Sequence record: OL451225.1
DNA: 64,000 bases
Origin: Escherichia phage P896
Direction: 5' to 3' (one strand)
The notes under the pieces were generated by a model. The model saw only the letters and a list, made by a program, of their open reading frames with translations, was not told where the DNA came from and searched no databases. Below, one piece after another: positions 25,015-43,829 of the stretch. Positions within the stretch are counted from its first letter, which is position 1. Each line of letters begins with the position of its first letter. Made by a program: the position numbers and the translations under genes.

Positions 25015-25038
25015 AAAGCAAAAAGGCCCGAAGGCCTT
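25015..25038 (-). terminator. Intrinsic terminator-like hairpin
   Basis: aggcccgaaggcct hairpin followed on the minus strand by a T-run, at the 3' end of the lipoprotein gene. Confidence 0.5.
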
Positions 25039-25297
25039 ATTCAAATCGGATGGTACTGTTCTTGAACAATAATCCAGAACAAACAGTTCCTTCAACTTTC
25101 TTACCAGTTGGCCCCACGGCTGTAAAACCTGTGTGTTGAAAATCATCTTTACCACAAGAGAACCAGTTATATCCGGTGATTTGGATTTGCTCATAGCCGT
25201 TTGCATCTAATACCCGAATGGCATTATCTGCATCAGTACAACCTGCCAATGAAACCGCCAGCACCAGCGCGGCAATAGAACGATTAATGTATTTCAT
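25037..25297 (-). CDS. Small lipoprotein (signal peptide with lipobox LAGC)
   Basis: 86 aa; N-terminus MKYINRSIAALVLAVSLAGCTD is a typical lipoprotein signal peptide. Confidence 0.6.
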   Translation of the reverse strand: MKYINRSIAALVLAVSLAGCTDADNAIRVLDANGYEQIQITGYNWFSCGKDDFQHTGFTAVGPTGKKVEGTVCSGLLFKNSTIRFE

Positions 25298-25303
25298 AAT
25301 TTC

Positions 25304-25480
25304 TCACTTAGTCAGCAGGTCATAGAACCCGCCGTTAACATGTTTAGGAGCTGAAACTAACCGAACAGCCAGCCGATGGCAATCAGGACAAACATCATTA
25401 TCTCTTTCAGAGATTTTCTTGATTTTTTCGTATTCTTTCGCGCAGTCTTCGGATTGGCATTTGTAGTCATAAAGTGGCAT
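25304..25480 (-). CDS. FmdB-family-like zinc-ribbon protein (58 aa)
   Basis: Hand translation MPLYDYKCQSEDCAKEYEKIKKISERDNDVCPDCHRLAVRLVSAPKH... shows the M-P-x-Y-x-Y-x-C...C / CPxC zinc-ribbon pattern; below the track length cut-off. Confidence 0.45.
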   Translation of the reverse strand: MPLYDYKCQSEDCAKEYEKIKKISERDNDVCPDCHRLAVRLVSAPKHVNGGFYDLLTK

Positions 25481-25481
25481 G

Positions 25482-25856
25482 TTATTCCTTAAAGTGTGCT
25501 TTCAACATCTGGTAAACGGTCCAGGCTTCAGAGTTATTAGAAATGGTGATTTTAGTCAAAGGGAATTCGCTTGGTTCAAATGCTTCATCAGCGTCTTCGC
25601 ATTCGTCTTCAGTATCGTCATCTTTTTCTTCTTCAAAGAAACGACGCTCATCTTCCTTTATGAATATTCTCTCCATTCCACCGGTCGAAAATTCTATCCG
25701 ATATACATCACCGCCTTCAATTCCGACTGGTCTAAATCCTTCACCATTGATTATAGCATCAGCTATATTATCATTATCAGAGCATAACAAACGAAATCTG
25801 CTTTCAGCAACATTATCTTTAAAATAATACCATTTATCAGTTTCAAATTTCAACAT
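25482..25856 (-). CDS. Hypothetical acidic protein
   Basis: Track ORF 25482..25979; likely start at the internal ATG (MLKFETDKWYYF...) to avoid a long overlap with the upstream gene; acidic C-terminal stretch. Confidence 0.45.
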   Translation of the reverse strand: MLKFETDKWYYFKDNVAESRFRLLCSDNDNIADAIINGEGFRPVGIEGGDVYRIEFSTGGMERIFIKEDERRFFEEEKDDDTEDECEDADEAFEPSEFPLTKITISNNSEAWTVYQMLKAHFKE

Positions 25857-26073
25857 GATAAGTCTCCTTCCAAAAATCTGTACCATCTTCTGATTCTTCG
25901 CGGAACAGTGCATAGCTAGGTAATTCCGCACCTTCATACGCATACACATAAATGATATCAGTGGTGCAAAGAAATTCATTGATGTTTTTCTTCACAATCA
26001 CTTTATCACTTTCAGCGGTTTCCCAGAACTCTTCAGCGGTCAGGGAAGTGGTCACACAATCTTCATTAAACAT
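25843..26073 (-). CDS. Hypothetical protein
   Basis: 76 aa ORF in track. Confidence 0.45.
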   Translation of the reverse strand: MFNEDCVTTSLTAEEFWETAESDKVIVKKNINEFLCTTDIIYVYAYEGAELPSYALFREESEDGTDFWKETYHVEI

Positions 26074-26120
26074 AATATTCTCCTCATTGATAGGGCAAAT
26101 TACCCTATCATTTTTATAAT

Positions 26121-26612
26121 TTAGGCAAAATGAATATCAGCATACTCAACGATAAAGCTTTCAGGAACAACCTTAAAGGTTCCAAGGAACACAATATTAT
26201 ACAATTTAACCCCTTCTTCAACCCACTGGTCGGTGATGTAACCGGACATACTAGTGGTTTCATAAGTCGGACCATACATGCAATTGTATTCAAACGGTTT
26301 AGGTGAAACAAAAAAGACACCTTTGCCCAATTTCCATTTAAAATCAACCCCAACATGAGACTGGTCAATGGTTTCAACGTCTTCGGCCACAGGAGCGATG
26401 TACCCAGTAAATTCGGTTGATTCCAGGAATTTAGGATGCACATAAGCCAATTGAGTTTCAGTCTGACCATGTTTAGGAATAATACGCACTTTAACTTCTT
26501 TAATTCCGCCTACTAAATTAGTGCGAAGACTCACAACCTCAACAAAACGACCAGCCGCTTTAGAACGAGATTCTTTAGAAACACGTACAATATCACCAGC
26601 TTCAACTTTCAT
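26121..26612 (-). CDS. Hypothetical protein (MotB-position; paralogous C-terminal domain with 26689..27444)
   Basis: 163 aa; C-terminus GYITDQWVEEGVKLYNIVFLGTFKVVPESFIVEY resembles the C-terminus of the adjacent 251 aa protein. Confidence 0.55.
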   Translation of the reverse strand: MKVEAGDIVRVSKESRSKAAGRFVEVVSLRTNLVGGIKEVKVRIIPKHGQTETQLAYVHPKFLESTEFTGYIAPVAEDVETIDQSHVGVDFKWKLGKGVFFVSPKPFEYNCMYGPTYETTSMSGYITDQWVEEGVKLYNIVFLGTFKVVPESFIVEYADIHFA

Positions 26613-26654
26613 AATTTTCTCTCTTGGTTAATAAATTTATTCTCCAGTGGGGTC

Positions 26655-26695
26655 ATTATACTCTGACCCCAAGAGTTTGTACACAAATTTAATTA
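26655..26695 (-). promoter_or_regulatory. Early promoter cassette (TGTACA / 17 bp / TATAAT inside an inverted repeat), PeSL-like
   Basis: Minus strand: aatttgTGTACAaactcttGGGGTCAgagTATAATGACCCCactggagaa; near-identical to the cassette at 16051-16095. Confidence 0.6.
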
Positions 26696-27444
26696 AAAAT
26701 TTCAACAACCATGGAACGTGGTACAACAGTAAATTCACCAGCATGGACAACGTTCAGGAGTTCAACACCATCTTCAATCCACTGGTCTGTTACCCAACCA
26801 CAAATGGAACTATTAAATGGACGTTTGATTTGAACTGGTTTGCACAACAAGTCAATAGGGTCACCCAGTTCGCTAACTTCTTTCAGCAGTACAGATTCAC
26901 GCGGATAAAGGATAGCTTCAAGATTGTCACCTGATTCATTGACTGCAGTAAATTCAAAGATGCTTTGGTGATTGTGGTACTTAACTGTTTTAACGGTAAA
27001 TGGAGTAAATCCAAAAATACCTTTTAGTACACGCCAACCAGCATGCATTGCAACGGTCTTTCCAAACTGACTGGCATCTTCAATAAGCTGATAGGTTTTA
27101 CCAACTTTGATAGGAGTTTCTTCAACTTCTTTGAAGAGTTCAATCTCAGCTTCATAAACCATAATTTTTTCTACTTCATTTGTATCAAGGCGACGTGCAT
27201 GTAGAATATATGCTTTATCAAACCAGTTACTTTTTACAAAAGTTTCAACAATAAATTCACCTTCGCCTAAAGCATCAGTCAGAGTATTATACCCAGAAAC
27301 CATAGCTGCATTTTGAATAATAGGTTCAATCAGTTGATAAGTTTTGTTAATTTCAATAGTCATATTTTGTTTCTCAAGTTTTAATGGTTTAATTGGGCGA
27401 ACATACATACTTACAACATCAAAGTCAATAAATTCTGGTTTCAT
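26689..27444 (-). CDS. Hypothetical protein with internal duplication and a C-terminal domain paralogous to 26121..26612
   Basis: 251 aa; two KTYQLIE-containing segments; C-terminus GWVTDQWIEDGVELLNVVHAGEFTVVPRSMVVE. Confidence 0.55.
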   Translation of the reverse strand: MKPEFIDFDVVSMYVRPIKPLKLEKQNMTIEINKTYQLIEPIIQNAAMVSGYNTLTDALGEGEFIVETFVKSNWFDKAYILHARRLDTNEVEKIMVYEAEIELFKEVEETPIKVGKTYQLIEDASQFGKTVAMHAGWRVLKGIFGFTPFTVKTVKYHNHQSIFEFTAVNESGDNLEAILYPRESVLLKEVSELGDPIDLLCKPVQIKRPFNSSICGWVTDQWIEDGVELLNVVHAGEFTVVPRSMVVEIFN

Positions 27445-27701
27445 TATGCAACCTTATTGAACATCGCCAGTTGATTAGGTTGTACAACCATAATTTCACG
27501 ACGACCTTTTGTATTTGACACGTTCAGGTAGATGCCTTTGTTCATGTCTGTTTCTTTATCATATACCGCAATTTTATTGACAGTAAAGATTTTACCACGA
27601 ATATTTGCAAATGCACATTCAAACGCTTTAGTCAGACCTGCTTCAGCAGCTTGAAGAGCGGACATTTCATATTGTTGGCCAATTTCAAAAGAAGTAATCA
27701 T
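27444..27701 (-). CDS. Hypothetical protein (85 aa)
   Basis: Track ORF 27444..27749; likely start is the ATG at 27701 (MITSFEIG...), preceded by a promoter cassette and the ATCAACTACTGATGAGGA leader. Confidence 0.5.
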   Translation of the reverse strand: MITSFEIGQQYEMSALQAAEAGLTKAFECAFANIRGKIFTVNKIAVYDKETDMNKGIYLNVSNTKGRREIMVVQPNQLAMFNKVA

Positions 27702-27732
27702 TTTGTTGTCCTCATCAGTAGTTGATGAGATG

Positions 27733-27772
27733 ATTATGTCTCTTTCCATTGGCCTTGTACACTACTTTTTAT
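27733..27772 (-). promoter_or_regulatory. Early promoter cassette (TGTACA / 17 bp / CATAAT) with ATCAACTACTG leader
   Basis: Minus strand: aaaaagtagTGTACAaggccaatggaaagagaCATAATcatctcATCAACTACTGATGAGGAcaacaaaATG. Confidence 0.6.
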
Positions 27773-28452
27773 CGTTTTTTCGGCAAAGATAATGGGTCTG
27801 CATCTTCTTCGGAAGGAACTTCATCTAAACCAAGGGCATAGCGCTGGGCATACTTCAACATCAAAATATCTTTCGCGCAGTCATGTACCGAATCGTGCGC
27901 CACGAATCCATCTAAAGTCCCCTTTGGTAATGGAGTTTCACACATTTTACGGACGAGTGACAGGGCTTCGATTGCTGTTCTGATATCTCGCTGGTTCCAG
28001 AATACAACCGGCTCCAGGTTATAGGTATTCAATTCGCGCTCAGGAATCCCCTCATTGCGCTGTAGGTCACGGATAAGGTCAACAAACAACGGGAAGTCAA
28101 AAGACATTCCACGACACCACATAAGGCTTTCGTATTTGTTAATTCCATTACCATTCAGATAATCAATTGCCTGTTGGATACCAGTTAAAGTATCAACATC
28201 TTGCGCAGAAGGGACCAGGTTAACACGTGCTTCTGCTGATTGCTTTTTCCACCAATCCATGGTTGTTGTATCGAACAGACGCTTACCTTTTTGGTATTCA
28301 AGGCTGAACTTGATACGTTTGCCGCGATTAACTAGGGTTTCGAATGATTCCACAATAGCAGGGTCAGATTCGAATGTAATCAGAGCCAGGTCAATAACGG
28401 CTCCCTTCGAGCCGTTTCCCAGAGTTTCAAAGTCAATAATAGCATCAATCAT
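27769..28452 (-). CDS. dexA: Exonuclease A DexA (DnaQ-like 3'-5' exonuclease)
   Basis: 227 aa (T4 DexA 227 aa); N-terminal DxE exonuclease motif (MIDAIIDFETLGN) and C-terminal H...D motif (HDSVHDCAKD). Confidence 0.85.
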   Translation of the reverse strand: MIDAIIDFETLGNGSKGAVIDLALITFESDPAIVESFETLVNRGKRIKFSLEYQKGKRLFDTTTMDWWKKQSAEARVNLVPSAQDVDTLTGIQQAIDYLNGNGINKYESLMWCRGMSFDFPLFVDLIRDLQRNEGIPERELNTYNLEPVVFWNQRDIRTAIEALSLVRKMCETPLPKGTLDGFVAHDSVHDCAKDILMLKYAQRYALGLDEVPSEEDADPLSLPKKR

Positions 28453-28720
28453 CGCACATCTCTTTTAATTTCTGAATTTCACCAGCAACATAGTCGGAGA
28501 TAAAAATCCCTGGCTCTTCATTGTTAAAATATTCAATCGCGGCCATACGTTTCCGAATAAGATTCAGTTCCAGTAAAACGTAATTACCCTGCACGACGAT
28601 AGTCGGATTATCTTCGAAAAATTCAACCGCGTCCTGAATACCATAGATGAGATTATCTAAATCTTCTTTATGTACCTTATACATAATATGCGTCGTACCT
28701 CGCTCGTGTGATTCCAACAT
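28445..28720 (-). CDS. Hypothetical protein
   Basis: 91 aa ORF in track between dda and dexA. Confidence 0.45.
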   Translation of the reverse strand: MLESHERGTTHIMYKVHKEDLDNLIYGIQDAVEFFEDNPTIVVQGNYVLLELNLIRKRMAAIEYFNNEEPGIFISDYVAGEIQKLKEMCDD

Positions 28721-30005
28721 AAGCTAACTGGCTCGCTAATGAAGCTTCGGCCATATGGATGCATGGAGTATAGATGAATGCTTTGTCCACTGAAACACCC
28801 TGTGCCTTATGGATTGTACTGACCGGAAGAGCACGAACTTTCAAGAAGGTCCGGCGAGCTTTCCAGAAGTCTTTCCATTCTGGACGTTTACCAGCGGCTT
28901 TCATCTGTTTGTATGTGTCAGCAACTTTAGCCAGGTATGCCTGGAATTTTGGTTGCTGGTCTTCTGGTAAAACTTTGATGCGGTCAACCTGATATTCTTC
29001 ATCTTCATCAATTGACTCAACTTCCAGGTCCCAGTAATTAATCACCAACTGGTGCGATTCGCCTTTACAACGGAGAATTGTGGAAGTGTATTTGCAATCC
29101 TTGATGCGAACCAACTGACCATTATTAAAAATGGTTTCGCTGAATTTCTTGCCTTCAAATTCCAGCTCTTTCATGTGTGGCTCTTGCATAACCAGGACTT
29201 CATACGGTAAAAATGCTTTATCTGTTTCATAGAGCTTGCGACGAATAATATTGTTCAGTTTTTCAACTGATTTATTCGTGTACGCATACATCCTGTTTTC
29301 CATCAACATATCAGCATCTTTTACAATACCGAAATAGTTTATCATGAAATCCTTTAAAGCGGTTTGTGAGGTAAAACCCTGCACACCATGACCATCATAC
29401 ATACAGTCGCGGAACCAACCACCATTGCGAATTTCTGTCGCCACTTCAATGATAGGAGCATTGCTTCGCATGACTTCAGTCAGATGAATCTGTTTGAACT
29501 TAGGATGCGTAAAGAATGGGCTTATCTTTTGTTGTGTGCTTCCTGGGTCAACTGGCTGCAGCTGGTGCATATCACCAATCCCAAGAATAGTACACCATTC
29601 AGGAACAGAGTTAAGAATAATCTTAAACAGAGACCCGTCATACATACTCGCTTCATCACAAACCAGAACATTACATTTTGACATATCAGGCATTTCGCGC
29701 TGTTCAAAAACGTTTTGGTCTTCATATGTGGTCGGGTTAATCTTCAAGATACTATGGATTGTATTCGCTGTTTGACCAGACAATTTAGATAAAACTTTTT
29801 TCGCCTGGTGAGTTGGTGCAGCAAGCACAATTCCCATAACTCCATTACGCACTAAATGGTCAATGACAAATTTTGTCAGAGTAGTTTTACCTGTACCAGC
29901 TGGACCATTCAGAGTGATACATTCCCCTGAACGTCGCTGAATAGCTTCAGTGATATAATCAAAAGCTTCTTTTTGTCCTGTGTTCAAGTCTTCAAATTTA
30001 ATCAT
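28677..30005 (-). CDS. dda: Dda DNA helicase (SF1B)
   Basis: 442 aa (T4 Dda 439 aa); Walker A GPAGTGKTT and blocks LAAPTH.AKK.LSKLSG..A.TIHSILKINP and YVG.TR.RYD match T4 Dda as I recall it. Confidence 0.92.
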   Translation of the reverse strand: MIKFEDLNTGQKEAFDYITEAIQRRSGECITLNGPAGTGKTTLTKFVIDHLVRNGVMGIVLAAPTHQAKKVLSKLSGQTANTIHSILKINPTTYEDQNVFEQREMPDMSKCNVLVCDEASMYDGSLFKIILNSVPEWCTILGIGDMHQLQPVDPGSTQQKISPFFTHPKFKQIHLTEVMRSNAPIIEVATEIRNGGWFRDCMYDGHGVQGFTSQTALKDFMINYFGIVKDADMLMENRMYAYTNKSVEKLNNIIRRKLYETDKAFLPYEVLVMQEPHMKELEFEGKKFSETIFNNGQLVRIKDCKYTSTILRCKGESHQLVINYWDLEVESIDEDEEYQVDRIKVLPEDQQPKFQAYLAKVADTYKQMKAAGKRPEWKDFWKARRTFLKVRALPVSTIHKAQGVSVDKAFIYTPCIHMAEASLASQLAYVGITRARYDAYYV

Positions 30006-30301
30006 GCCAATTTTACTCGCTTAACATATAAAGTATCTAAAACTAATTTCAATTCTCGTGCGTGTTCTTCAGTAGGAAAAACAGTTTTTGTTTCCCGCTT
30101 ATCAAACCACCATTTTCTGGGAGTACACCGTGTTTCTATACGTCCCATACTTAAATATCTTTTTGTATTATATAAATAGCCAGCCATTTCATAATCTGCG
30201 ACAGCTTTTGTGGCGTATAAGGTCACCTTTCCATCATACTCCAATGGGCGTTCAAAACCATCTTTATCTTTGTGGACCAGCACATATGCGTAGTACATCA
30301 C
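30002..30301 (-). CDS. Hypothetical protein (dda.1 position)
   Basis: 99 aa ORF in track. Confidence 0.45.
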   Translation of the reverse strand: MMYYAYVLVHKDKDGFERPLEYDGKVTLYATKAVADYEMAGYLYNTKRYLSMGRIETRCTPRKWWFDKRETKTVFPTEEHARELKLVLDTLYVKRVKLA

Positions 30302-30302
30302 A

Positions 30303-31046
30303 TTAACCTCTAATCAGTTTAAAAATTGACGCGTTCAAAGGTAGACCTTTTTTCAGTTTAAGGCGGTCAATGAATGACAACTTATCTAAACGCTCCAGAC
30401 CTTGAATAATTTTATCATACATATCGTAACGCGTTTCAGCGTCAGATGATTTCATTTTCAGACGCCAGTCAGGACCGCCCATAACCATTTTCAGTCCACG
30501 TTGACTAGTTCCGATGGAAGCCATTTGTCCATGGATACGAGCCTTGACTGCAATCACAGAAGGGGTGGTATCTTTAGCGCCACTTTTATAAAGCTCTTTT
30601 AAATGTTTTTGACGCTTCTTGATTCCACGTTCGGTATCTTTAATATTTTTAACAATTTTGCGAATTTTATAATAGTCAGCAGGAGTTACTTTAAAACTAT
30701 TGGGCATCTTAGAACCACCATTAATACGCACCGCCAAACGAGTCTGTGCACGTTTAAGTTCATCAAGAGATAAATCAGCACGTAAACCGTTGTACTTAGT
30801 TTTGACAGGGATAACATTGCCTTCAATATAACCTATATCATTGTTAAAGCGTTCAAAGGAAACTTTATCTTGAGTTGAATTTTCATCAAAACGTTCACCA
30901 GAATACGCACAGAATTCTTGTTTCAAAAGATTGGCGATATACTTACTAGACAGATTGAAATCCTTGTTACGACGTTTTGCAGACGTTTTGGTATGCTCGC
31001 GACGTTTGTAAACTTTTAATTCAAACTCTTCTTTTGACATATTCAT
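30303..31046 (-). CDS. Srd-like protein (by size and position)
   Basis: 247 aa basic protein between dda.1 and the ART genes, where T4 carries srd (about 250 aa); no motif confirmation. Confidence 0.4.
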   Translation of the reverse strand: MNMSKEEFELKVYKRREHTKTSAKRRNKDFNLSSKYIANLLKQEFCAYSGERFDENSTQDKVSFERFNNDIGYIEGNVIPVKTKYNGLRADLSLDELKRAQTRLAVRINGGSKMPNSFKVTPADYYKIRKIVKNIKDTERGIKKRQKHLKELYKSGAKDTTPSVIAVKARIHGQMASIGTSQRGLKMVMGGPDWRLKMKSSDAETRYDMYDKIIQGLERLDKLSFIDRLKLKKGLPLNASIFKLIRG

Positions 31047-31082
31047 GATATTTTTCTCATCTTACGGACGATTGAAAACTCA

Positions 31083-31120
31083 GTATGGATTCATTATACA
31101 CTATTCATCTTTTATGTACA
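31083..31120 (-). promoter_or_regulatory. Early promoter cassette (TGTACA / 16 bp / TATAAT), PeSL-like
   Basis: Minus strand: aaaaagtagTGTACAtaaaagatgaatagtgTATAATgaatccatactgagtttt. Confidence 0.55.
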
Positions 31121-31202
31121 CTACTTTTTAGCCTTTAACGCTTTTATTTTTACTGTGTATAATGGTTCTAAGGTCTTTGGCCTTTTGTTAACCCAGAATA
31201 CT

Positions 31203-31817
31203 TCAGTAAGAAAGAACGGAAAGATTCCATAATTTATAGTCTTCCCATCTATAAATGCTCTCAATAGAGTCCACGCGTAGCGTAGTTCCCGCAGGGAACA
31301 TCATCTCATCTTCATCATTTACTAATTGTAAGTTTGAAGAACGAGTTATTTCAGGATATAGTCCGTTGAACTCTTCAGGAGGTGCCGCACAAATCATTTT
31401 AAAAATCGCTTCCTGATAATCAAATGCGAATGGTGCATCATTAATACAGAAAATATTTTTGGTTCCATAGAAGCTAAAGGAAGCAAAGTTACGCGCAACA
31501 CTGAAATCTTTGGAGAAACTCATTACACGGTCAAACTCAATCGTAGCACCAACACATCCTACGGTTTCAAGATATGCCAAAGTTTTCTTAGAAATCCCGC
31601 GATATAACTTACCAGGCACAACAGAAGTCAAATTCTTACGAATAATTTTGTTCAAAGTTTCCTGGATAGTGTCTGGCTTATTTTCCATGCACTGCCAGAG
31701 TGTACTCTGTTCCAACTCAGAGTAAATTTCATCAATTTCAATCTGGGTATTTTCGCGAAAATATTCACATTTAACTGCATTGATGTACTCTGCTAATTGG
31801 TGACTTGCGTACAGCAT
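31203..31817 (-). CDS. ModA/ModB-family mono-ADP-ribosyltransferase (R-S-ExE class)
   Basis: Track ORF 31203..31850; likely start at ATG 31817 (MLYASHQ...). Motifs in order: LYRG (Arg), SFSKD (S-x-S), DEDEMMF (ExE). Which of the pair is modA and which modB is not resolved. Confidence 0.7.
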   Translation of the reverse strand: MLYASHQLAEYINAVKCEYFRENTQIEIDEIYSELEQSTLWQCMENKPDTIQETLNKIIRKNLTSVVPGKLYRGISKKTLAYLETVGCVGATIEFDRVMSFSKDFSVARNFASFSFYGTKNIFCINDAPFAFDYQEAIFKMICAAPPEEFNGLYPEITRSSNLQLVNDEDEMMFPAGTTLRVDSIESIYRWEDYKLWNLSVLSY

Positions 31818-31848
31818 TTTATTATCCTCATCAGTAGTTGATAGGAAC

Positions 31849-31885
31849 ATCTTAACATGTCTTATTGTGCTTGTACACAGTCAAG
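31849..31885 (-). promoter_or_regulatory. Early promoter cassette (TGTACA / 17 bp / TAAGAT) with ATCAACTACTG leader
   Basis: Minus strand: TGTACAagcacaataagacatgtTAAGATgttcctATCAACTACTGATGAGgataataaaATG. Confidence 0.5.
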
Positions 31886-34338: not shown

Positions 34339-34343
34339 TATAA

Positions 34344-34616: not shown

Positions 34617-34618
34617 AC

Positions 34619-34900
34619 TTACAATTTGGCGGCTTGGACTGCTTTATTGGCTTCAGTCATTTTAGCTAGATTTTCAGCAGTAGGATTGGCAATGTATTCG
34701 GCTGTAGCTTGAGCAAAAACATTATGAGTTTCGATTACATTTTTAGCATTTTCAGTATTCATATCAATTTCTTGTTTAGATAAATTTTTTAGTTGATTGG
34801 CTAAGAGTTCTACAAAGATTTCAACATTAGCGTTTTCAATTATAGCATTAATATGCTTCTTACGAGCTTTCTTAAGTTGACGTTTATTTAAACGAGCCAT
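34619..34900 (-). CDS. Hypothetical protein (soc.1 position)
   Basis: 93 aa ORF in track. Confidence 0.45.
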   Translation of the reverse strand: MARLNKRQLKKARKKHINAIIENANVEIFVELLANQLKNLSKQEIDMNTENAKNVIETHNVFAQATAEYIANPTAENLAKMTEANKAVQAAKL

Positions 34901-35418
34901 TAATAACCTCGGTCTTGGCGAGCAAAGTTCTCGGCATTTTTCAGGTAATACAGTTTAAAGATTTCTTCTGCTGTCAGACCAAGACCATGGAACATATTCA
35001 GAACAAAGTGCAGGATATCAATCATTTCGAATTTAATTTCGAGCTGGTCTTCAGGAGACAATTCATCAATACGACGATTACGGAATTCAGCATGTTGCGC
35101 TTTCCACGGCTTCCAGCAACTGGATGCGGCTTTCTCACCATTAGACATGCCACCGAGCGAAGTCAGAAGTTCACGGAATTCGTCGTCGACATAATCTTTC
35201 TGGTTACGAAGCCATGCAACAACATCGCCTGCGGTTGCCAATTCATCTGGATGTGTGTTATATTCTGGTTTTTCTGTAGCCAGACGAACCTGCAAAGATT
35301 TCTGCATATCAAGCATAATCTGCAGAGGGTCATCATTGCCTTTTAGGACATCATTATACGCATCTTGCGCTTTATCAACACCAGCAATCAGTTGAGAACA
35401 CTCGTTAAAATGAGCCAT
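34900..35418 (-). CDS. 56: dCTP pyrophosphatase (dCTPase/dUTPase) gp56
   Basis: Track ORF 34900..35436; likely start at ATG 35418 (MAHFNECSQLIAGVDKAQ...); MAHFNEC, DPLQ.MLDMQ, ETAGDVV.W, IDDEFRELLTSLG, SPEDQLEIKFE..DI.HFVLNMF and EEIFKLYYLKN.ENFARQDRGY blocks match T4 gp56 as I recall it. Confidence 0.88.
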   Translation of the reverse strand: MAHFNECSQLIAGVDKAQDAYNDVLKGNDDPLQIMLDMQKSLQVRLATEKPEYNTHPDELATAGDVVAWLRNQKDYVDDEFRELLTSLGGMSNGEKAASSCWKPWKAQHAEFRNRRIDELSPEDQLEIKFEMIDILHFVLNMFHGLGLTAEEIFKLYYLKNAENFARQDRGY

Positions 35419-35502
35419 TATATTTTTCCTTATCAATTCATATTGTTTGTATGTTAATTATATCATATTGGTTTAAAGCATAAATACAAGAAAGGAGGAT
35501 GT

Positions 35503-35700
35503 ATGCTCAAACTATCTAGTCTAATTCAAGCCATCAAAGGCAGTCGTAAGCGAACGATTCTGGTCCTTTCGATACTCTGTTTTGTTCTACTCTGGAATTT
35601 CATTGTTGTCCCTATTGCATTGGCACATGGTGTTATATTGCCAGTCGTCGCGCTCGAATCAGTTGTAGATGTTTCACTGGCATTAATCGGCCTTATATAA
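35503..35700 (+). CDS. Small two-TM membrane protein on the opposite (+) strand
   Basis: 65 aa ORF with a strong SD (aaaggagg, 5 nt before the ATG); hydrophobic segments TILVLSILCFVLLWNFIVVPIALA and VVDVSLALIGLI; the only plausible + strand gene inside the minus-strand early block. Confidence 0.45.
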   Translation: MLKLSSLIQAIKGSRKRTILVLSILCFVLLWNFIVVPIALAHGVILPVVALESVVDVSLALIGLI

Positions 35701-37805: not shown

Positions 37806-37845
37806 ATTAATCTCGCTTCATGAAAGCATTAAAAATCTGGTCATC
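37801..37845 (-). repeat. Direct repeat copy 2 (gene-junction cassette)
   Basis: catattaatctcgcttcatgaaagcattaaaaatctggtcatcaa; see copy 1. Confidence 0.8.
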
Positions 37846-38241
37846 AACTGAATATACAGGGGTTTCCAGAAGTTTCAAAAGACTGTTTTTGATGTACTTA
37901 CCCGGGATACCCTTAACAATACTGTCATTCAACTCATTATCAGGGTTGATGTCTTTAAATTCAAACCCGTCAAACTCAACCTTGTCAGGAATACCGTCAG
38001 CGAAAAAATAAACCAATTGGTGCATTGTATTGCGCGAAAATAATTTAGACTTGACCGCAATAAGTTCTTGCCAATGGTTTAATTCTTTGTTAAGAAGTTT
38101 ATGAGCAAACGTAATTCTATTATCACTATCAACAAGAAAATAACCCAGGTATTGAATCTCGTCGCTCCAAAACACCCTGTATGCCTGCGCATTTGGATTT
38201 TTACAACGAAGTTTTTTGATAACCAAATTTCTGTTAATCAT
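37807..38241 (-). CDS. Hypothetical protein ending in DDQIFNAFMKRD
   Basis: Track ORF 37807..38376; likely start at ATG 38241 (MINRNLVIKK...) in a TAAAATG overlap with the upstream lipoprotein gene stop. Confidence 0.5.
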   Translation of the reverse strand: MINRNLVIKKLRCKNPNAQAYRVFWSDEIQYLGYFLVDSDNRITFAHKLLNKELNHWQELIAVKSKLFSRNTMHQLVYFFADGIPDKVEFDGFEFKDINPDNELNDSIVKGIPGKYIKNSLLKLLETPVYSVDDQIFNAFMKRD

Positions 38242-38242
38242 T

Positions 38243-38536
38243 TTATTCACCTGTAACCCATTGAACAATTTTGCTATTGTCAAATGAAGCATCGCAATAC
38301 AGAATATAGTTATACTGCATAACGTCACCAGAAGACAATTGGTCAGATACTTCTTTAACCATATCAGGGCGGTCACGTTTGGTTATGTTCATGATATCAG
38401 CACGAATCTGGGTTTCAACTTCAGATTGCTCTGCTGTCATAGACCATTCACAAAGGTTTTTATCAAGCCCAGCAGTAACTGGAGCTGTACCACATGATGC
38501 TACGGTAAGAATTGCTGCAATAATTAACTTTTTCAT
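38243..38536 (-). CDS. sp: Periplasmic lipoprotein, Spackle (Sp)-like by size and position
   Basis: 97 aa with signal peptide/lipobox MKKLIIAAILTVASCG; T4 Sp (61.3) is a 97 aa secreted protein in the 61-41 interval. Assignment is by size and position only. Confidence 0.45.
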   Translation of the reverse strand: MKKLIIAAILTVASCGTAPVTAGLDKNLCEWSMTAEQSEVETQIRADIMNITKRDRPDMVKEVSDQLSSGDVMQYNYILYCDASFDNSKIVQWVTGE

Positions 38537-38564
38537 AATGTTCTCCTCAGTAGTTGATATGGAT

Positions 38565-38594
38565 AATATACTGCATTATCCCTTTGATGTAAAC
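38565..38594 (-). promoter_or_regulatory. Early promoter (GTTTACA minus-35 / 17 bp / TATATT) with ATCAACTACTG leader
   Basis: Minus strand: GTTTACAtcaaagggataatgcagTATATTatccatATCAACTACTGAGGAGaacattATG. Confidence 0.5.
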
Positions 38595-38596
38595 TG

Positions 38597-38800
38597 TTAT
38601 TTTTCGTTAGAACGATAATCACATTCAAAAACTTTATTGTCATTAACAAAGGCTTTAACCAGCGCATTATTCACTTCTGCATACTGCACTGTAACCCATT
38701 CAATCATATTTTTGTCACTGACATCCAGCGCGGTTTCTTTGGTAAACATATTACCATTTTCAAACCAACCAATAAACAATACGTTCTCTAATTTATACAT
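38597..38800 (-). CDS. Hypothetical protein
   Basis: 67 aa ORF in track. Confidence 0.45.
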   Translation of the reverse strand: MYKLENVLFIGWFENGNMFTKETALDVSDKNMIEWVTVQYAEVNNALVKAFVNDNKVFECDYRSNEK

Positions 38801-39118
38801 TTAGATTTCCTCACAAAACGCCCAGGCAGCGTGATAAACTGTTGCGCCTTTAGTATCATTTAAACAAACCACGTCAACAGGTGCAATCACACGATAAAGA
38901 CGGGGTTCTCCTCCATATGAGCGAGCTGCTCTTCCTGCATAGATACGCGCCAAACCAATATCTTCAGTAAAAAACACACGCCCTAAATTTTTCTTACGCC
39001 CAACTTCTGACAGAACACCAGTTGCATCAGGAGGACAAAGCATATTTTGGATTCCAGCATTAGAGCTTGACCCATGATAATAAACTTTGTATTCTGCCTT
39101 GCAATCAATGGTTTTCAT
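38801..39118 (-). CDS. Hypothetical protein with possible H-G-S (PARP/diphtheria-toxin-class) ADP-ribosyltransferase-like signature
   Basis: 105 aa; YHGSSSNAGIQNM..PP....G then GRVFFTEDIGLARIYAG resembles the PARP catalytic-core pattern HGS..NFAGIL......PP....G...GKGIYFA; too short for a canonical domain, so speculative. Confidence 0.5.
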   Translation of the reverse strand: MKTIDCKAEYKVYYHGSSSNAGIQNMLCPPDATGVLSEVGRKKNLGRVFFTEDIGLARIYAGRAARSYGGEPRLYRVIAPVDVVCLNDTKGATVYHAAWAFCEEI

Positions 39119-39154
39119 TTTATTCTCCAGTAGTTGATAGGGTCATTATAACAT

Positions 39155-39177
39155 AAGAAAAAGGGGCTGTAAGCCCC
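39155..39177 (-). terminator. Intrinsic terminator-like hairpin
   Basis: ggggctgtaagcccc hairpin followed on the minus strand by a T-run; next is a TATAAT plus ATCAACTACTGGAGA leader for the downstream gene. Confidence 0.5.
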
Positions 39178-39186
39178 TTTGTTCAC

Positions 39187-39489
39187 TTACGCCAACTCAT
39201 AGTTGTGCATAGTCAGACAACGAATTTTCCCAGTAGTTGGGTGCATAACAGTCACACTAATTGTGTAATCATCGCACACGTTAACAAAAGGTTCAGCGAT
39301 AACATATACTGCCCCGCCTGCAAGCAGATACTCACGAAGAGAGCTGCGAACAGATGAAGGTTGAACATCGCTTTTGAGCTTTATTAATTTACCAGTTTGA
39401 ATGCCTGATGCGATAAGAGCAGCACAGTTTTCATCACGGCGAGCGAATTGTCCAAAATAGTAACGATTCATATCGGTTTGATTAAACAT
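39187..39489 (-). CDS. Hypothetical protein
   Basis: 100 aa ORF in track, preceded by a promoter cassette. Confidence 0.45.
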   Translation of the reverse strand: MFNQTDMNRYYFGQFARRDENCAALIASGIQTGKLIKLKSDVQPSSVRSSLREYLLAGGAVYVIAEPFVNVCDDYTISVTVMHPTTGKIRCLTMHNYELA

Positions 39490-39538
39490 ATGGTTTTCCT
39501 TTTAACAGTTGGTTTATTGTGTAACTCAGTATGGAATC

Positions 39539-39578
39539 ATTATGTCCTAAGACAAGGGGCTTGTACACTATTTTAATT
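39539..39578 (-). promoter_or_regulatory. Early promoter cassette (TGTACA / 17 bp / CATAAT), PeSL-like
   Basis: Minus strand: aaaatagTGTACAagccccttgtcttaggaCATAATgattccatactgagttacac. Confidence 0.6.
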
Positions 39579-39816
39579 CATTAATTAAATGAAAATCTTG
39601 TGCATTGAAAGTAATGAAAAAATAATCATTCCCTTCAACTGAAGCATGACAGGCAACACTACACCAGCGCCTTGCTCTGTTCAAGGAGCAATCCAAAATT
39701 TTAAAAGGCTTCAGACCAACAATGGCAGCTGTTCTTTTATTATGCTCACAAATATCAGCATACTTTTGGAGAGCTTCTTCAGATTTGAACTGGTAATGCA
39801 CATTAACTAATAACAT
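39568..39816 (-). CDS. Hypothetical protein (adjacent to gene 41, where T4 carries dmd)
   Basis: 82 aa ORF with the ATCAACTACTGATGAGGA leader upstream; T4 Dmd is 60 aa, so equivalence is only positional. Confidence 0.4.
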   Translation of the reverse strand: MLLVNVHYQFKSEEALQKYADICEHNKRTAAIVGLKPFKILDCSLNRARRWCSVACHASVEGNDYFFITFNAQDFHLINELK

Positions 39817-39882
39817 TTTATTATCCTCATCAGTAGTTGATGGGATAATAGTACACCCTTTTTATGAGGATGTAAACCCCTA

Positions 39883-39905
39883 AATGAAAAAAGGTCCACC
39901 CGAAG
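39883..39905 (-). terminator. Weak terminator-like hairpin after gene 41
   Basis: Short GC stem (accc..gggt) followed on the minus strand by a T-run, just 3' of the gp41 stop. Confidence 0.3.
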
Positions 39906-39910
39906 GGTCT

Positions 39911-41350
39911 TTAGAATTTCATTTGAGCAGCAAGGTCGTCCAGGTCGCTCCTGTTGACCCTGGTTTGTCTATTCATTTCAGCCTGGCGATTCATCTCACC
40001 GGTGGCTTCTTTAACCGTAGGGCCTTGTTTAGGAGCTGAATCATCATCAACCTCGTACCAGCGCTGATTACCTTTCTTAACACCCATCTTGAATTTATTA
40101 TAGTAGTTCTTATCGCCATAACGAGACTTAAGCTGTTTGATTAACTGCAGACCCATTTGAGCGAATTCTTCAGTCTCAACAACACCCAACATAAAGTCGG
40201 CCGTGTGAGCAATACCAAAGGATTCTGCGATGTCAGCCATATCAATCTCAGCTGCAACGTTCGCGCCCCTGGTTGTCTGTGCTGCAGTCCACAGGACCAC
40301 ATTTTTCTCAACAGCCAGACCACGAAGTTCTTCTGCAACCATCTTAATCAGGCCGTAACTGTTTTCGGTAAACGTTTTCAGTCTTGAGCTTGCACAGATT
40401 GCCAGGTAGTCAACAATAATCACATCCGGCACAAACCCTTGCTTCAGTTTGTATTCATTCAATAATGCACGGAAGGTATCTGCATGAGCACCGCCAGTTG
40501 GATATTGTTTTATCTTCAGAGTCCCAAGAGTCCCTGATGCCCGCCATTTTTCCATCTTAGCTTTGTATTCTGCCCATGATATATGACCTTCATCAATATC
40601 ATCCAGAGACACATCCAGCAAGTTGGCATCAATACGTTTGGCACATACTTCTTCAGCCATTTCCATGCTTATATAAAGCACGTTATGACCAGTCTGAAGA
40701 TAGTCGGCCGCTAACGAACAAAGTCCCAGAGATTTCCCGACGTTGGTCCCGGCCAGTAAAACGTTCTCTGTGCCATACTCAACCCCACCCTTTGTGATTT
40801 TATTCAGGATGTTAATACGGAACGGAACCTTCTTCGATTTGTTCAGATAAGTCTGGAATCGAGCCTCGTAATCGTTTAACCAGTCATGGCCGAGGGCAGA
40901 ATCAAAACAGATGGACAATGCATCACGCATGATGTCAGGGATAGCACCGATATCCGGGATTCGTTTATCACGTTTATCTTTCGGAAGTTCGGCATTACTC
41001 TGGATTTCGATAATCCTGGATGTGGCATTGAACATCGCAGATTTCTGCACATACTTCTCGGTTTCTCTAACCAACCATTCTTGGTCTTCTGGAGTATCGG
41101 CCAGGACTCCTAAGAGTTTCTTTGTGCCTTCATATTCGACTTCAGAAAGGTCAGAACTGTCGAGCGCGATATCAAGTGCAGTCTTAGTTGGTACCGCTTG
41201 ATATTCTTTTACGTGTTCGTTAATCGTATTAAAAAGAGTCTTCGCGGGACCCTTTTCAAAATATGTGTTATTCAGATACGGCCAGACTTTAACAAAATAT
41301 TCCTTGTTAAAGAGTAGCTGGGATAAAATAGTTTCTACCACTTCCACCAC
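39911..41350 (-). CDS. 41: Replicative DNA helicase gp41 (DnaB-like)
   Basis: 479 aa (T4 gp41 475 aa); Walker A GTNVGKS and DnaB-family blocks. Confidence 0.92.
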   Translation of the reverse strand: MVEVVETILSQLLFNKEYFVKVWPYLNNTYFEKGPAKTLFNTINEHVKEYQAVPTKTALDIALDSSDLSEVEYEGTKKLLGVLADTPEDQEWLVRETEKYVQKSAMFNATSRIIEIQSNAELPKDKRDKRIPDIGAIPDIMRDALSICFDSALGHDWLNDYEARFQTYLNKSKKVPFRINILNKITKGGVEYGTENVLLAGTNVGKSLGLCSLAADYLQTGHNVLYISMEMAEEVCAKRIDANLLDVSLDDIDEGHISWAEYKAKMEKWRASGTLGTLKIKQYPTGGAHADTFRALLNEYKLKQGFVPDVIIVDYLAICASSRLKTFTENSYGLIKMVAEELRGLAVEKNVVLWTAAQTTRGANVAAEIDMADIAESFGIAHTADFMLGVVETEEFAQMGLQLIKQLKSRYGDKNYYNKFKMGVKKGNQRWYEVDDDSAPKQGPTVKEATGEMNRQAEMNRQTRVNRSDLDDLAAQMKF

Positions 41351-41679
41351 CTCTTTTTCATTTTAATTTTATCAATTTCATCTTGTATTTGCATTGTAAC
41401 ACACTTTTCTACATGCACAGCAAGCTCCGCTTTGCGGTCTTCAGAAGGGGTGCCGAAATCAACTGAAACTTTTCCAGATGGTTCAATTTTAATTCCGGTT
41501 ACGTACACAATGTGACTGGACCCATCAGGGAGTGATAACAGAATTTCCTGCCGTACAGTTCCCATGGATTGCCGGATAATCTCCAAACTTTTTTCGTAGT
41601 AAGGTACAGAAGGAGCCTTAGCTCCCTCCGCATCTTTCTCGAAATTATCTAAATCAGATAAATCGATATCATTCATCAA
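41335..41679 (-). CDS. 40: gp40 (head vertex assembly chaperone)
   Basis: 114 aa ORF between uvsX and 41 as in T4. Confidence 0.7.
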   Translation of the reverse strand: MMNDIDLSDLDNFEKDAEGAKAPSVPYYEKSLEIIRQSMGTVRQEILLSLPDGSSHIVYVTGIKIEPSGKVSVDFGTPSEDRKAELAVHVEKCVTMQIQDEIDKIKMKKRWWKW

Positions 41680-42847
41680 GGTCTTCCATCATATCTAAAT
41701 CGTTTTCGATATCTGCCGCAGACGGTTTTGTCTTACCTTCAGGAGCAGTGTATTTTTCAACCTTGGAGGCAATAAGCGCATCAACTTCGGCATCAACAAC
41801 AGCATTGCTATCGATTGCACCCAGTTGGTAATGGCGTTTGATTGCATCACGGAAAGGTTCGTGCTTGAACAGCGGGCCCCAGAATTCGGTGCAGTTAGTA
41901 TCTTTTGCGCGCCATGATTTTTCTTCGCGGACCATTTCACCGGTCTCAACATCAAGATATTCACGGTTATACCAACCAACTTTTGGTTTCACCACAAATC
42001 CGATTTCCATTGCCATATCAAGCAGGCCAGAATACGGGTCAATACCCCCATCGAATTTTACATCAATGAAGAATTTACTTTTCTCTTTGACCATACGAGA
42101 TTTTTCGGCGTTCAGAACAAATTGGAAGCCTTCAAGTTCTTTACCAGTTTCTTTAATCTGGCGTTTGCCGATAATGAATACGGTGTCCGCAGAATACATA
42201 ACACCTGTACCGCCGGTCATAACGGTTTTACTGTACATCTCAATCGTCTCGATTGTATGGTTAACCGCGACACAAGGAATATCCTTGATGCTAAAATACG
42301 GGGTAACAATACGGAACAGAGATTTCAGGGATTTGGCACGAGTCATATCACCAACGACTTTTTCGTTCATCGCATCTTCTGTTTCTTTTTTCGACGCCAT
42401 GTTACCGATTGAGTCAATAAAAATAATGACTTTTTCACCACGCTCAATTGCTTCAAGCTGGTTAACCATATCAACTTTCAATTGTTCAACCGACTGGATT
42501 GGTGTATGGATAACACGTTCCGGGTCAACTTTCATTGCACGAAGATATGCTTCTGTGATACCAAATTCTGAATCATAGAACAAACAGATTGCATCGGGGT
42601 ATTTGTTCATATATGCAGAGACCATCGTTAAACCCATATTGGATTTAAAGTGTTTTGACGGACCAGCAAAAATAGTCAAACCTGACTGCATACCACCATC
42701 TAGTGCACCGCTGATTGCAATGTTCAGCATCGGGATTTTTGTACGAACTACATCTTTACCATTAAAGAACTTGGACTTGGTAAGAGTCGCGGTCATTTTG
42801 GATGTAGAAGCTTTAATCAAACGGGATTTCAAATCTGCAATAGACAT
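41669..42847 (-). CDS. uvsX: Recombinase UvsX (RecA-like)
   Basis: 392 aa (T4 UvsX 391 aa); Walker A GPSKHFKS and RecA-fold blocks. Confidence 0.92.
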   Translation of the reverse strand: MSIADLKSRLIKASTSKMTATLTKSKFFNGKDVVRTKIPMLNIAISGALDGGMQSGLTIFAGPSKHFKSNMGLTMVSAYMNKYPDAICLFYDSEFGITEAYLRAMKVDPERVIHTPIQSVEQLKVDMVNQLEAIERGEKVIIFIDSIGNMASKKETEDAMNEKVVGDMTRAKSLKSLFRIVTPYFSIKDIPCVAVNHTIETIEMYSKTVMTGGTGVMYSADTVFIIGKRQIKETGKELEGFQFVLNAEKSRMVKEKSKFFIDVKFDGGIDPYSGLLDMAMEIGFVVKPKVGWYNREYLDVETGEMVREEKSWRAKDTNCTEFWGPLFKHEPFRDAIKRHYQLGAIDSNAVVDAEVDALIASKVEKYTAPEGKTKPSAADIENDLDMMEDLDE

Positions 42848-42932
42848 TCATTTTTTCCATAGGCACCATCATATTTTTCTCACAGGTTTAAGATATGATA
42901 ATTATATCACTGTATTTTTAGAGCAATTAATG

Positions 42933-43436
42933 TTAGTTAATACCTTGGCGTGCTTTCTCTTTAGCTACACATTTATTAATATAGCTCAGACGGTTTTGAG
43001 CAGAACGCTGATACATATCGCGGTACTCATTAGCTTTTGGAGAACCCGTCTCCGCTGCCTGATAAGCTTCTGCGCGCATGATGTTTATCTGCATATTGAT
43101 ATATGACATGCAGACCTGCGAAATCTGGTTAACAGTATCCAGGTCATTTTGTCGCTTGGTTTCTGCTTCCAGCTTGGCAATGATTTCGTCATGCTTCGCA
43201 GCTTGCTCGCGTTTGTACTCAATTTCTTGTTGAGCATATTTCGCGCAGTTGTTTCCACATTGATTGTTGTCGCGTTTGTAGATAAGTCCAGTACCACCTT
43301 TGAAATCAAAGGAACCATTATGCACCTGACGGTCTGCAGCAATTCGCGCTTTACCAATCTCGTTGGCATTAACAACATCACCCTGGTAAGCACAACCAGA
43401 TAGCAGCATAACAGCTGCGATAGCTAACTTTTTCAT
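42933..43436 (-). CDS. Lipoprotein with coiled-coil region
   Basis: Track ORF 42933..43463; likely start at ATG 43436 (MKKLAIAAVMLLSGC..., SD GAGGA); it occupies the interval where T4 carries beta-gt and gene 42. Confidence 0.55.
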   Translation of the reverse strand: MKKLAIAAVMLLSGCAYQGDVVNANEIGKARIAADRQVHNGSFDFKGGTGLIYKRDNNQCGNNCAKYAQQEIEYKREQAAKHDEIIAKLEAETKRQNDLDTVNQISQVCMSYINMQINIMRAEAYQAAETGSPKANEYRDMYQRSAQNRLSYINKCVAKEKARQGIN

Positions 43437-43446
43437 TGTATTTTCC

Positions 43447-43590
43447 TCAATTAAAACATTCATAGCGGGCTTGGAGCCCCAAAAATACCCAACCCAAAAT
43501 TAAAGTTGGAATCATATGTGGAGTCATTATTGCCCAGTAGATTGACATACTAAAAAATGCAATCAGTACAATAATTGTAATTATCTTCAT
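43447..43590 (-). CDS. Small membrane peptide (imm.1 position)
   Basis: 47 aa MKIITIIVLIAFFSMSIYWAIMTPHMIPTLILGWVFLGLQARYECFN read by hand; ATGA overlap with the imm stop. Confidence 0.4.
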   Translation of the reverse strand: MKIITIIVLIAFFSMSIYWAIMTPHMIPTLILGWVFLGLQARYECFN

Positions 43591-43829
43591 TTTGCTTCCT
43601 TGATGATAATTACTTGTGCATTTGATTTACGTTCAGCAACGAGTGCCCAGATAAATGCAATAAACCATCCGACCATTGTCCAACCTAACAGGAGGTTAAC
43701 AAAGAAGATTCCGCAATTACTTTTGGTTCCACGCAGTAGCGCGATAATCCACGGCAGAAAATATACCAGTGCAGCCAGGAAGAAAGAACCAGCCCCAAGA
43801 ACAACAGTACCCGCAATTAATGCTTCCAT
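43587..43829 (-). CDS. imm: Superinfection immunity protein Imm (membrane)
   Basis: Track ORF 43587..43901; likely start at ATG 43829, giving an 80 aa two-TM protein (T4 Imm 83 aa) directly downstream of gene 43. Confidence 0.7.
   Translation of the reverse strand: MEALIAGTVVLGAGSFFLAALVYFLPWIIALLRGTKSNCGIFFVNLLLGWTMVGWFIAFIWALVAERKSNAQVIIIKEAK

Follow-up and report, generated by a model that had tools for sequence, protein, structure and literature searches.

Does the early region of Escherichia phage P896 (sequence record OL451225.1) encode envelope proteins that set this phage apart from its relatives, or does it carry the set that is normal for T4-type phages? The question arises from a preliminary description of a 64,000-nucleotide stretch of this genome, here called the window, which listed three genes with lipobox signal peptides, the exclusion genes imm and sp and several membrane micro-proteins, and which proposed that two "extra" lipoproteins may have additional exclusion or envelope-remodelling functions. 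The window represents the early region of a VR7-like coliphage (genus Gaprivervirus, Tevenvirinae). We found all of the listed open reading frames (ORFs) present at their coordinates on the minus strand, but no new kind of element: they form a normal T4-type set, and the two lipoproteins belong to known ORF families. Their description as extra does not hold, as both have counterparts in T4 itself, namely gp39.1, which is intact in the resequenced T4 genome MT984581, and Imm.1, which belongs to phrog_1754. We thus consider it probable that the flagged ORFs encode the usual early proteins that T4-type phages direct to the envelope rather than additions peculiar to this genome.

The 19-kb interval that contains the two lipoprotein genes (25037..43829) is 96.7% identical to Escherichia phage PSD2001 (Gaprivervirus) and 89% identical to vB_EcoM_VR7. 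VR7 bears T4-style gene names, and every ORF can therefore be mapped to T4 nomenclature. The early genes of the interval lie on the minus strand and follow the T4 order 39 ... dexA, dda, modA/B, 56, 61, sp, 41, 40, uvsX, imm, 43. Every listed ORF matches a PHROG family (E 1e-9 to 1e-47) and corresponds to an annotated ORF in at least one of VR7 and PSD2001. The ratio of nonsynonymous to synonymous substitution rates (dN/dS) relative to VR7 is 0.04-0.20 across five genes of the interval, which are under purifying selection.

Lipobox-containing ORFs in the Window

We scanned the whole window in six frames and from all possible starts with a PROSITE PS51257-type rule, which calls for a positively charged N-region, a hydrophobic core and the sequence [LVI][ASTVI][GAS]C with its cysteine at positions 15-35. 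Exactly three ATG-initiated ORFs on the minus strand pass this rule, at 25037..25297 (LAGC, Cys-20), 38243..38536 (VASC, Cys-15) and 42933..43436 (LSGC, Cys-15), and all three are preceded by a GAG/GAGG Shine-Dalgarno-like sequence. They are the three named in the preliminary description, whose assignment of signal peptides and lipoboxes is thus upheld. As a measure of its chance level, the rule also picked out three of 812 candidate starts, each of the three a TTG on the non-coding plus strand. These hits raise the concern that some of the small ORFs discussed here are chance open frames, as very short hydrophobic ORFs are frequent by chance and a hydropathy scan of the window also flags many ORFs in non-coding frames. 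Given the PHROG matches, the annotated counterparts in VR7 and PSD2001 and the low dN/dS values of the five interval genes, we regard this explanation as highly improbable.

The lipobox is conserved within the families of two of the three proteins (87 of 99 relatives of the protein at 25037..25297 and 33 of 34 relatives of that at 42933..43436), and early mRNA was recorded for the homologues of both in T4 (PMC9697503). These two look like true lipoproteins, as had been claimed. The claim does not extend to the third, Sp, which in T4 is cleaved by signal peptidase I (PMC7650644).

We infer from their sequences that the two remaining proteins, which we assign to gp39.1 and to the Imm.1 family, are substrates of Sec and signal peptidase II. 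Lipoproteins that lack an aspartate at position +2 are sorted to the outer membrane in E. coli. In the gp39.1 family this residue is Thr or Ser and never Asp; in the Imm.1 family it is Ala, Gln or Val. Both proteins would thus be exported, lipidated and sorted to the outer membrane, and their cysteines would be oxidized to disulfide bonds in the periplasm. Searches of Pfam, NCBIfam, PADLOC and PDB sequences returned no annotated family for either lipoprotein beyond noise at the level of the signal peptide.

The Predicted gp39.1 Lipoprotein and Its T4 Counterpart

The ORF at 25037..25297 (minus strand) encodes an 86-residue prolipoprotein, which is annotated as gp39.1 in VR7 and matches phrog_902 (E 2.3e-36). 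Its signal peptide, MKYINRSIAALVLAVSLAG, in which Lys-2 and Arg-6 supply the charge of the N-region, is followed by the lipobox Cys-20. The mature part comprises 67 residues with two invariant cysteines (Cys-48 and Cys-73) and a STIRF motif at the C terminus. Of 99 relatives, 87 have a strict lipobox; most of the others keep the cysteine within a less strict motif, and it is missing from about four. Exactly two mature cysteines are found in 83 of 87 relatives. The lipobox reads LAGC in phage YA3 and LTGC in Stenotrophomonas phage Mendera. Relative to VR7, the gene has a dN/dS of 0.115. In an AlphaFold2 (AF2) model with a predicted local distance difference test (pLDDT) score of 78, the mature protein folds into one helix and four strands, starting about 3 residues past the lipid-bearing cysteine.

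The gene is flanked by genes 39 and 39.2. A hairpin resembling an intrinsic terminator, AAGGCCTTCGGGCCTT followed by a T run, was found by a terminator scan at 25023..25038 (minus strand), where it overlaps the gp39.1 stop codon. It would terminate a goF-39.2-39.1 transcription unit ahead of gene 39.

We compared this locus to T4. In the T4 reference sequence (NC_000866 5398..5839), 39.1 encodes 65 rather than 86 residues and has lost its signal peptide, and 39.2 encodes 45 rather than 58 residues, a truncation due to the same error. This allele is confined to AF158101/NC_000866 and two old fragments and differs from all independently resequenced T4 genomes; it thus looks like a legacy sequencing error. 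The resequenced T4 genome MT984581 encodes an intact 86-residue gp39.1 with the lipobox LIGC, and T4 thus possesses a gp39.1 lipoprotein. We also considered that T4 no longer had a functional 39.1, owing to a frameshift and to the absence of its lipobox cysteine, and we rejected this, since the allele occurs only in the composite reference and the two old fragments while resequenced T4 is intact. The window protein is about 76% identical over 86 residues to gp39.1 of resequenced T4 and other Tequatrovirus members; its gene occupies the same site after 39.2, and T4 39.1 is followed by the same hairpin sequence. No difference of substance remains, the 65 residues without signal peptide in the reference being explained by errors in the old sequence. 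The product name "heat shock protein" given to the gp39.1 homologue of Klebsiella phage VAC66 looks spurious.

A Probable Imm.1-family Lipoprotein

The second lipoprotein gene (42933..43436, minus strand) encodes 167 residues and is the homologue of VR7ORF049c and JS98 orf43 (phrog_1754, E 4.9e-47). Its signal peptide, MKKLAIAAVMLLSG, precedes Cys-15, and its mature part contains a CxxxC pair (Cys-60 and Cys-64) in addition to Cys-109 and Cys-156 in a C-terminal helical bundle. A start at 43463 was tried and rejected: homologues begin with MK(K), a Shine-Dalgarno sequence (GAGGA) precedes the ATG at 43436, and the longer frame would run into 42.1. This small family is restricted to phages, and most of its members have four mature cysteines. 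In the AF2 model (pLDDT 72 overall, above 90 for residues 90-165), a poorly defined N-terminal segment of 60 residues is followed by a 70-residue helix that packs against two further helices. With Cys-109 on the long helix and Cys-156 on the last one, a disulfide could staple the modelled bundle. The gene has a dN/dS of 0.044 relative to VR7, a comparison in which diversifying selection was not seen.

Several features connect this protein to T4 Imm.1, which has an LAGC lipobox. The phrog_1754 profile matches the window protein (E 4.9e-47) and T4 Imm.1 (6.1e-43) over their full length, and it also matches JS09 Imm.1 (5.1e-29) and PS2_047 (1.5e-27). The window protein and T4 Imm.1 have in common a lipoprotein signal peptide, the pattern C-x-x-Q-G-x-V-V-N-x-x-[DE]-[VI]-G-K at the mature N terminus (CVAQGPVVNQSDVGK versus CAYQGDVVNANEIGK), two C-terminal cysteines that align in MAFFT, and linkage to imm. 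They differ in length (167 versus 125 residues), in the CxxxC motif and in the longer helical region of the window protein. When the window protein was compared to T4 and JS09 Imm.1 by hhalign, a probability of 97% was obtained over the first 30 columns only, that is, over the signal peptide and the mature N terminus. A search of 1.84 billion representatives with a profile of alignment A3 retrieved 21 proteins at E <= 0.001, and among the 14 sequences inspected none came from a T4-type phage, a formal comparison to T4 Imm.1 being made for none of them. Since the profile-profile support is limited to these 30 columns, we place the window lipoprotein in the Imm.1 family, as a divergent member, and do so with moderate confidence. 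Names attached to these proteins in the databases look spurious, with T4 Imm.1 listed as "iduronate sulfatase" (RefSeq NC_000866) and the Imm.1-like lipoprotein of PSD2001 as "capsid and scaffold protein" (UIS66270.1).

Organization of the imm Neighbourhood

Imm is a small inner-membrane protein that blocks the entry of superinfecting DNA. The Imm homologue of the window (43587..43829, minus strand) comprises 80 residues from MEALIAG, belongs to phrog_1039 and scores 64.3 bits with PF14373 (cut-off 27.9), which confirms the earlier identification. Its start agrees with those of T4 and JS98 Imm in an alignment and is preceded by the Shine-Dalgarno sequence GAGGA, and its maximum hydropathy over 19 residues is 2.23. 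It resembles T4 Imm in its domain, in its hydrophobic character, in its position downstream of gene 43, and in being followed by 42.1 with a stop/start overlap. It differs in sequence (about 50% identity to Tequatrovirus Imm) and in that the lipoprotein gene lies upstream of imm in T4 but downstream of 42.1 in the window.

The 42.1 homologue (43447..43590, minus strand) encodes a 47-residue micro-protein (phrog_3610, E 7.6e-27), which is conserved with invariant residues in T4, VR7, JS98, CHI14, PEi20, EcS1 and PM2 (alignment A4). Hydrophobic stretches flank a conserved TPxMIPT turn and may form two membrane spans, in line with the description of this ORF as a membrane peptide downstream of Imm. 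Its dN/dS is 0.058. We noted that 42.1 (47-49 residues) is unannotated in the T4 RefSeq record, though it is conserved in at least seven T4-like genera.

The three genes imm, 42.1 and the lipoprotein gene are contiguous, with 42.1 and uvsX as the neighbours of the latter. The ATG of 42.1 overlaps the stop codon of imm (ATGA), in T4 as in the window, and the stop codon of 42.1, 10 nucleotides ahead of the ATG of the lipoprotein gene, overlaps the Shine-Dalgarno sequence of that gene. We infer that the three genes, which are closely packed, make up a single unit downstream of gene 43 and are translationally coupled. Between the stop of gene 43 and the start of imm, a consensus scan located a match to a sigma-70-like promoter (43870..43898, minus strand; TTTACA, 17-nucleotide spacer, TATGAT; 10 of 12 positions), which is a consensus match only.

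We next compared the gene order in this neighbourhood across T4-like genera. The order is 43, imm, 42.1, lipoprotein gene in the window, VR7 and JS98 (Gaprivervirus and Dhakavirus), and 43, imm.1, imm, 42.1, 42 in T4 (Tequatrovirus). In JS09 (Mosigvirus), the cassette has been relocated next to sp (61.4, imm.1, imm, sp, 61.2). In PS2 (Muldoonvirus), the lipoprotein gene overlaps the start of imm, and its product aligns in full length by hhalign (95.9%). Linkage between the lipoprotein gene and imm is thus found in five genera (Tequatro-, Mosig-, Gapriver-, Dhaka- and Muldoonvirus). A different arrangement, with 43, lipoprotein gene, arabinose-5-phosphate isomerase gene and a 42.1-like gene but no adjacent imm, is present in PEi20 (Kanagawavirus), CHI14 (Winklervirus), EcS1 (Kagamiyamavirus) and PM2 (Mosugukvirus). 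The isomerase position is annotated as hypothetical in PEi20, and IME523 (Kanagawavirus) has the order 43, lipoprotein gene, hypothetical gene. These findings together indicate that the lipoprotein-imm linkage is real but not obligatory. In RB69-like phages, imm.1-imm lies directly upstream of sp, so that the genes for three envelope proteins are contiguous and away from gene 43.

Envelope Target, Receptor Block or Lysis

We investigated which functions the distribution of the two lipoproteins would allow. Searches by tblastn found gp39.1 homologues in 1068 phage records, covering nearly all T4-like genera, a Pseudomonas podophage (51% identity), Stenotrophomonas phage Mendera, Aeromonas phages and Agrobacterium jumbo phage Atu_ph07. 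Identity is 50-60% across Escherichia, Pseudomonas and Stenotrophomonas phages and 36% for Atu_ph07, and further jumbo-phage relatives were found in BFVD. In a collection of bacterial genomes, a single relative was detected, in Flagellimonas marina (NZ_JBHSCL010000010.1, a contig of 178,077 bp). The neighbouring genes on this contig are phage-like and include peptidase-like and HNH/AP2-type endonuclease-like genes; it probably represents either a prophage or the genome of a T4-like phage that was co-assembled. The sole bacterial locus thus offers no chromosomal context for inference.

That phages of unrelated hosts share so well conserved a protein suggests that its target in the envelope is conserved as well. 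A tether of about 3 residues would keep the gp39.1 domain close to the membrane, at the inner leaflet of the outer membrane. Because of this very short tether and the unusually high cross-host conservation, gp39.1 may bind or inhibit an envelope component that is itself broadly conserved, and not a specific phage receptor, a proposal that we find attractive although we would stop short of calling it probable.

The main rival is that one or both lipoproteins act in the manner of Llp of T5 or Cor of phi80 and T1, outer-membrane lipoproteins that inactivate the phage's own receptor from its periplasmic face. Such a protein would block superinfection and would stop the loss of progeny on cell debris, and this was also the functional model of the preliminary description. 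Llp and Cor are, like our two candidates, small early outer-membrane lipoproteins of virulent phages; the architecture of T5 Llp is matched by two proteins that are small, early, disulfide-containing and predicted to reside in the outer membrane. The Imm.1 family moreover diverges fast between genera, with about 50% identity to Dhakavirus and 25-35% to more distant genera and to T4 Imm.1, as would suit an arms race or a receptor-specific fit. Within the genus, however, the Imm.1-like protein is 98% identical between the window and VR7, whereas the two phages differ by 27% in Sp and by 16% in Imm. The hosts of the gp39.1-encoding phages cannot share a receptor, and the cross-host conservation of this protein thus argues against receptor-specific exclusion. 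Neither lipoprotein resembles Llp or Cor in sequence or fold: Foldseek found no significant PDB match for either model, Llp complexes included (no hit at E <0.6), there was no PDB sequence hit, and the sole Cor-family signal (E 8e-4), obtained with the PS2 homologue, does not reach beyond its signal peptide. We thus consider a receptor block unlikely.

A role in lysis or its timing, be it spanin-like, in lysis inhibition or in the inhibition of a murein hydrolase, appears less likely still, and we judge it improbable. It would be in keeping with the fact that phage outer-membrane lipoproteins classically are o-spanins and that this region also encodes Sp, an inhibitor of lysozyme that has a lysis phenotype (PMC7650644). 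T4 gp39.1, whose RNA is early, was detected as a protein and classed as late-accumulating (PMC9697503 supplements), which also would fit. Neither lipoprotein gene, however, is embedded in or adjoins an i-spanin, holin or endolysin gene, and the gp39.1 homologue of YA3 is found among recombination genes rather than in a lysis cassette. T4-type phages have separate spanins, PseT.2 and PseT.3, and a pseT.2 lipoprotein is annotated at about 137.5 kb in CHI14. As modelled, both proteins are globular or helical and cysteine-stapled and do not conform to the short proline-rich type of o-spanins.

A Possible Exclusion Module around Imm

The arrangement of imm, 42.1 and the lipoprotein gene raises the possibility that their products work together. 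T4 Imm.1, like T4 Sp, is early both as RNA and as protein (PMC9697503 supplements). Based on the linkage, the co-translation and the early expression, we tentatively suggest that the Imm.1-family lipoprotein could act on the periplasmic side of the entry block imposed by Imm. Anchored in the outer membrane, it could reach toward the inner membrane with its 70-residue helix. More speculative, and in our view doubtful, is the extension of this idea to an envelope-spanning superinfection-exclusion module of T-even phages made up of the Imm.1-family lipoprotein, 42.1 and Imm. Here, the cysteine-stapled helical domain of the lipoprotein would span the periplasm to reach the inner-membrane proteins and would help to close the DNA entry route. 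Alternatively, the lipoprotein may serve as an independent periplasmic block in phages without Imm such as CHI14.

Several observations weigh against these proposals. Lu and Henning reportedly found that plasmid-borne Imm is sufficient for immunity when expressed by itself, so that no partner would be needed. In Serratia phage CHI14, tblastn searches with five Imm queries covered 146 of the 171 kb and detected no Imm; the remaining block, at 100-125 kb, contains late genes. This phage keeps gp39.1, Sp, an Imm.1-like lipoprotein and a 42.1-like peptide; with lipoprotein and 42.1 retained in the absence of a detectable Imm, the lipoprotein cannot strictly depend on Imm. The linkage to imm thus provides circumstantial support for an exclusion role, and this support is weakened by CHI14. 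The outer-membrane sorting of the two lipoproteins is a prediction from the E. coli +2 rule, and the searchable literature yielded nothing on the lipidation, localization or function of gp39.1 or the Imm.1 family, nor on the function of T-even lipoproteins. The limited reach of the alignment with T4 and JS09 Imm.1, the outcome of the A3 profile search and the lack of a PDB fold match for either model point in the same direction.

Spackle Carries a Pseudo-lipobox

The third ORF that passes the lipobox rule (38243..38536, minus strand) encodes Sp (Spackle), which had been identified correctly: its 97 residues match PF25676 with 144.3 bits (cut-off 27) over profile positions 1-96 of 96, and it belongs to phrog_1586. 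The window protein is 65% identical to T4 Sp (gp61.3) and 73% to VR7 Sp and thus is a strongly diverged allele relative to its neighbours. It nevertheless shares with T4 Sp the length of 97 residues, the full-length Pfam match, Cys-29 and Cys-81 (invariant in alignment A7), an AxA-type site before Gly-23 and the position between genes 61 and 41.

In T4, the mature N terminus of Sp was sequenced as Gly-23, corresponding to a cut after residue 22 (PMC7650644). T4 Sp is a soluble periplasmic protein, which crystallizes as residues 23-97 and which binds and inhibits the gp5 tail lysozyme in the periplasm (PMC7650644, PMC7677548), as shown for T4 only. A matching signal peptidase I site is predicted in the window protein (VTA|GLDK, residues 22/23). 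Given the cleavage seen in T4 and this matching site, Sp should not be counted as a demonstrated lipoprotein. By homology, window Sp is likely a signal peptidase I substrate and a periplasmic inhibitor of gp5 lysozyme: it would be exported, its 22-residue signal peptide would be removed, and it would then inhibit the gp5 lysozyme of incoming phages in the periplasm.

The pseudo-lipobox VASC at residues 12-15 satisfies the strict rule, and its [AS]-S-C part (residues 13-15; window positions 38492..38500) is invariant in five Tevenvirinae genera (Tequatro-, Mosig-, Dhaka-, Gapriver- and Jiaodavirus) amid varying flanking residues, while it is block-deleted in a Providencia phage homologue. Sp could thus be lipidated in part, with [AS]-S-C as a working lipobox and a form anchored at Cys-15 beside the soluble form that starts at Gly-23. 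The N-terminal sequencing used only the soluble freeze-thaw fraction of over-expressing cells (PMC7650644), which leaves room for such a form. Yet the protein was experimentally found cut after residue 22, was abundant in the soluble periplasmic fraction and crystallized as residues 23-97 (PMC7650644, PMC7677548), and a cysteine within the hydrophobic core of a signal peptide may be kept for other reasons. We consider partial lipidation quite unlikely.

Micro-proteins and Diverged Alleles

The micro-proteins listed at 13690, 15173, 16742 and 16959 all contain strongly hydrophobic 19-residue windows and match PHROG families, consistent with their description as membrane peptides. The 46-residue protein at 15173..15313 (minus strand) is the gp52.1 homologue (96% identity to VR7 gp52.1; phrog_3595; maximum 19-residue hydropathy 2.55). 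Homologues of Ndd.3 and Ndd.4 are encoded on the minus strand at 16742..16948 (68 residues from MNYNSH; 94% to VR7 Ndd.3; phrog_2401; one hydrophobic segment) and 16959..17081 (38-40 residues; 100% to VR7 Ndd.4; phrog_3098). Beside gene 52, a 32-residue protein resembling VR7ORF278c (13690..13788, minus strand; phrog_16377) is preceded by GGAGG and is 100% identical in PSD2001. By sequence, these micro-proteins are conserved T4-type ORFs.

The hydropathy scan added three ORFs to those described before, at 15310..15495 (VR7ORF281c), at 17135..17224 and, on the plus strand, at 35503..35700, all of which match PHROG families as well. The last encodes a predicted 65-residue membrane protein (phrog_2024, E 1.2e-26), the homologue of VR7ORF033w and RB32 ORF030w, and has AAGGAGG upstream. 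It lies on the strand opposite to its neighbours, is present in VR7 and PSD2001, and is 52% identical to an unannotated ORF between dam and gene 61 in the T4 reference.

Five loci of the window carry alleles that diverge from VR7: Sp (38243..38536; 73% identity), Imm (43587..43829; 84%), Srd (30303..31046; 50%), ModA (31203..31850; 65%) and gp56 (34900..35436; 70%), while the flanking genes are 96-100% identical. The synonymous substitution rate (dS) relative to VR7, where it could be estimated, is close to 1 or higher for Sp, Srd and gp56 and 0.46 for Imm. The divergence of the five proteins together with high dS values suggests mosaic replacement of alleles.

Implications for T4-type Phages

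As stated, the initial proposal amounts to a re-description of conserved T4-type genes and changes little. Its by-products are the hidden lipoproteins of T4, the lipoprotein-imm linkage and the conserved pseudo-lipobox of Sp. Among the expressed proteins of T4 itself are two unstudied lipoproteins, gp39.1 and Imm.1, both of which are hidden or mislabelled in its reference annotation. The repeated linkage of a lipoprotein gene to imm bears on a possible third exclusion component: if the module outlined above exists, it would add such a component to an exclusion system that has been described since the 1980s as Imm plus Sp.

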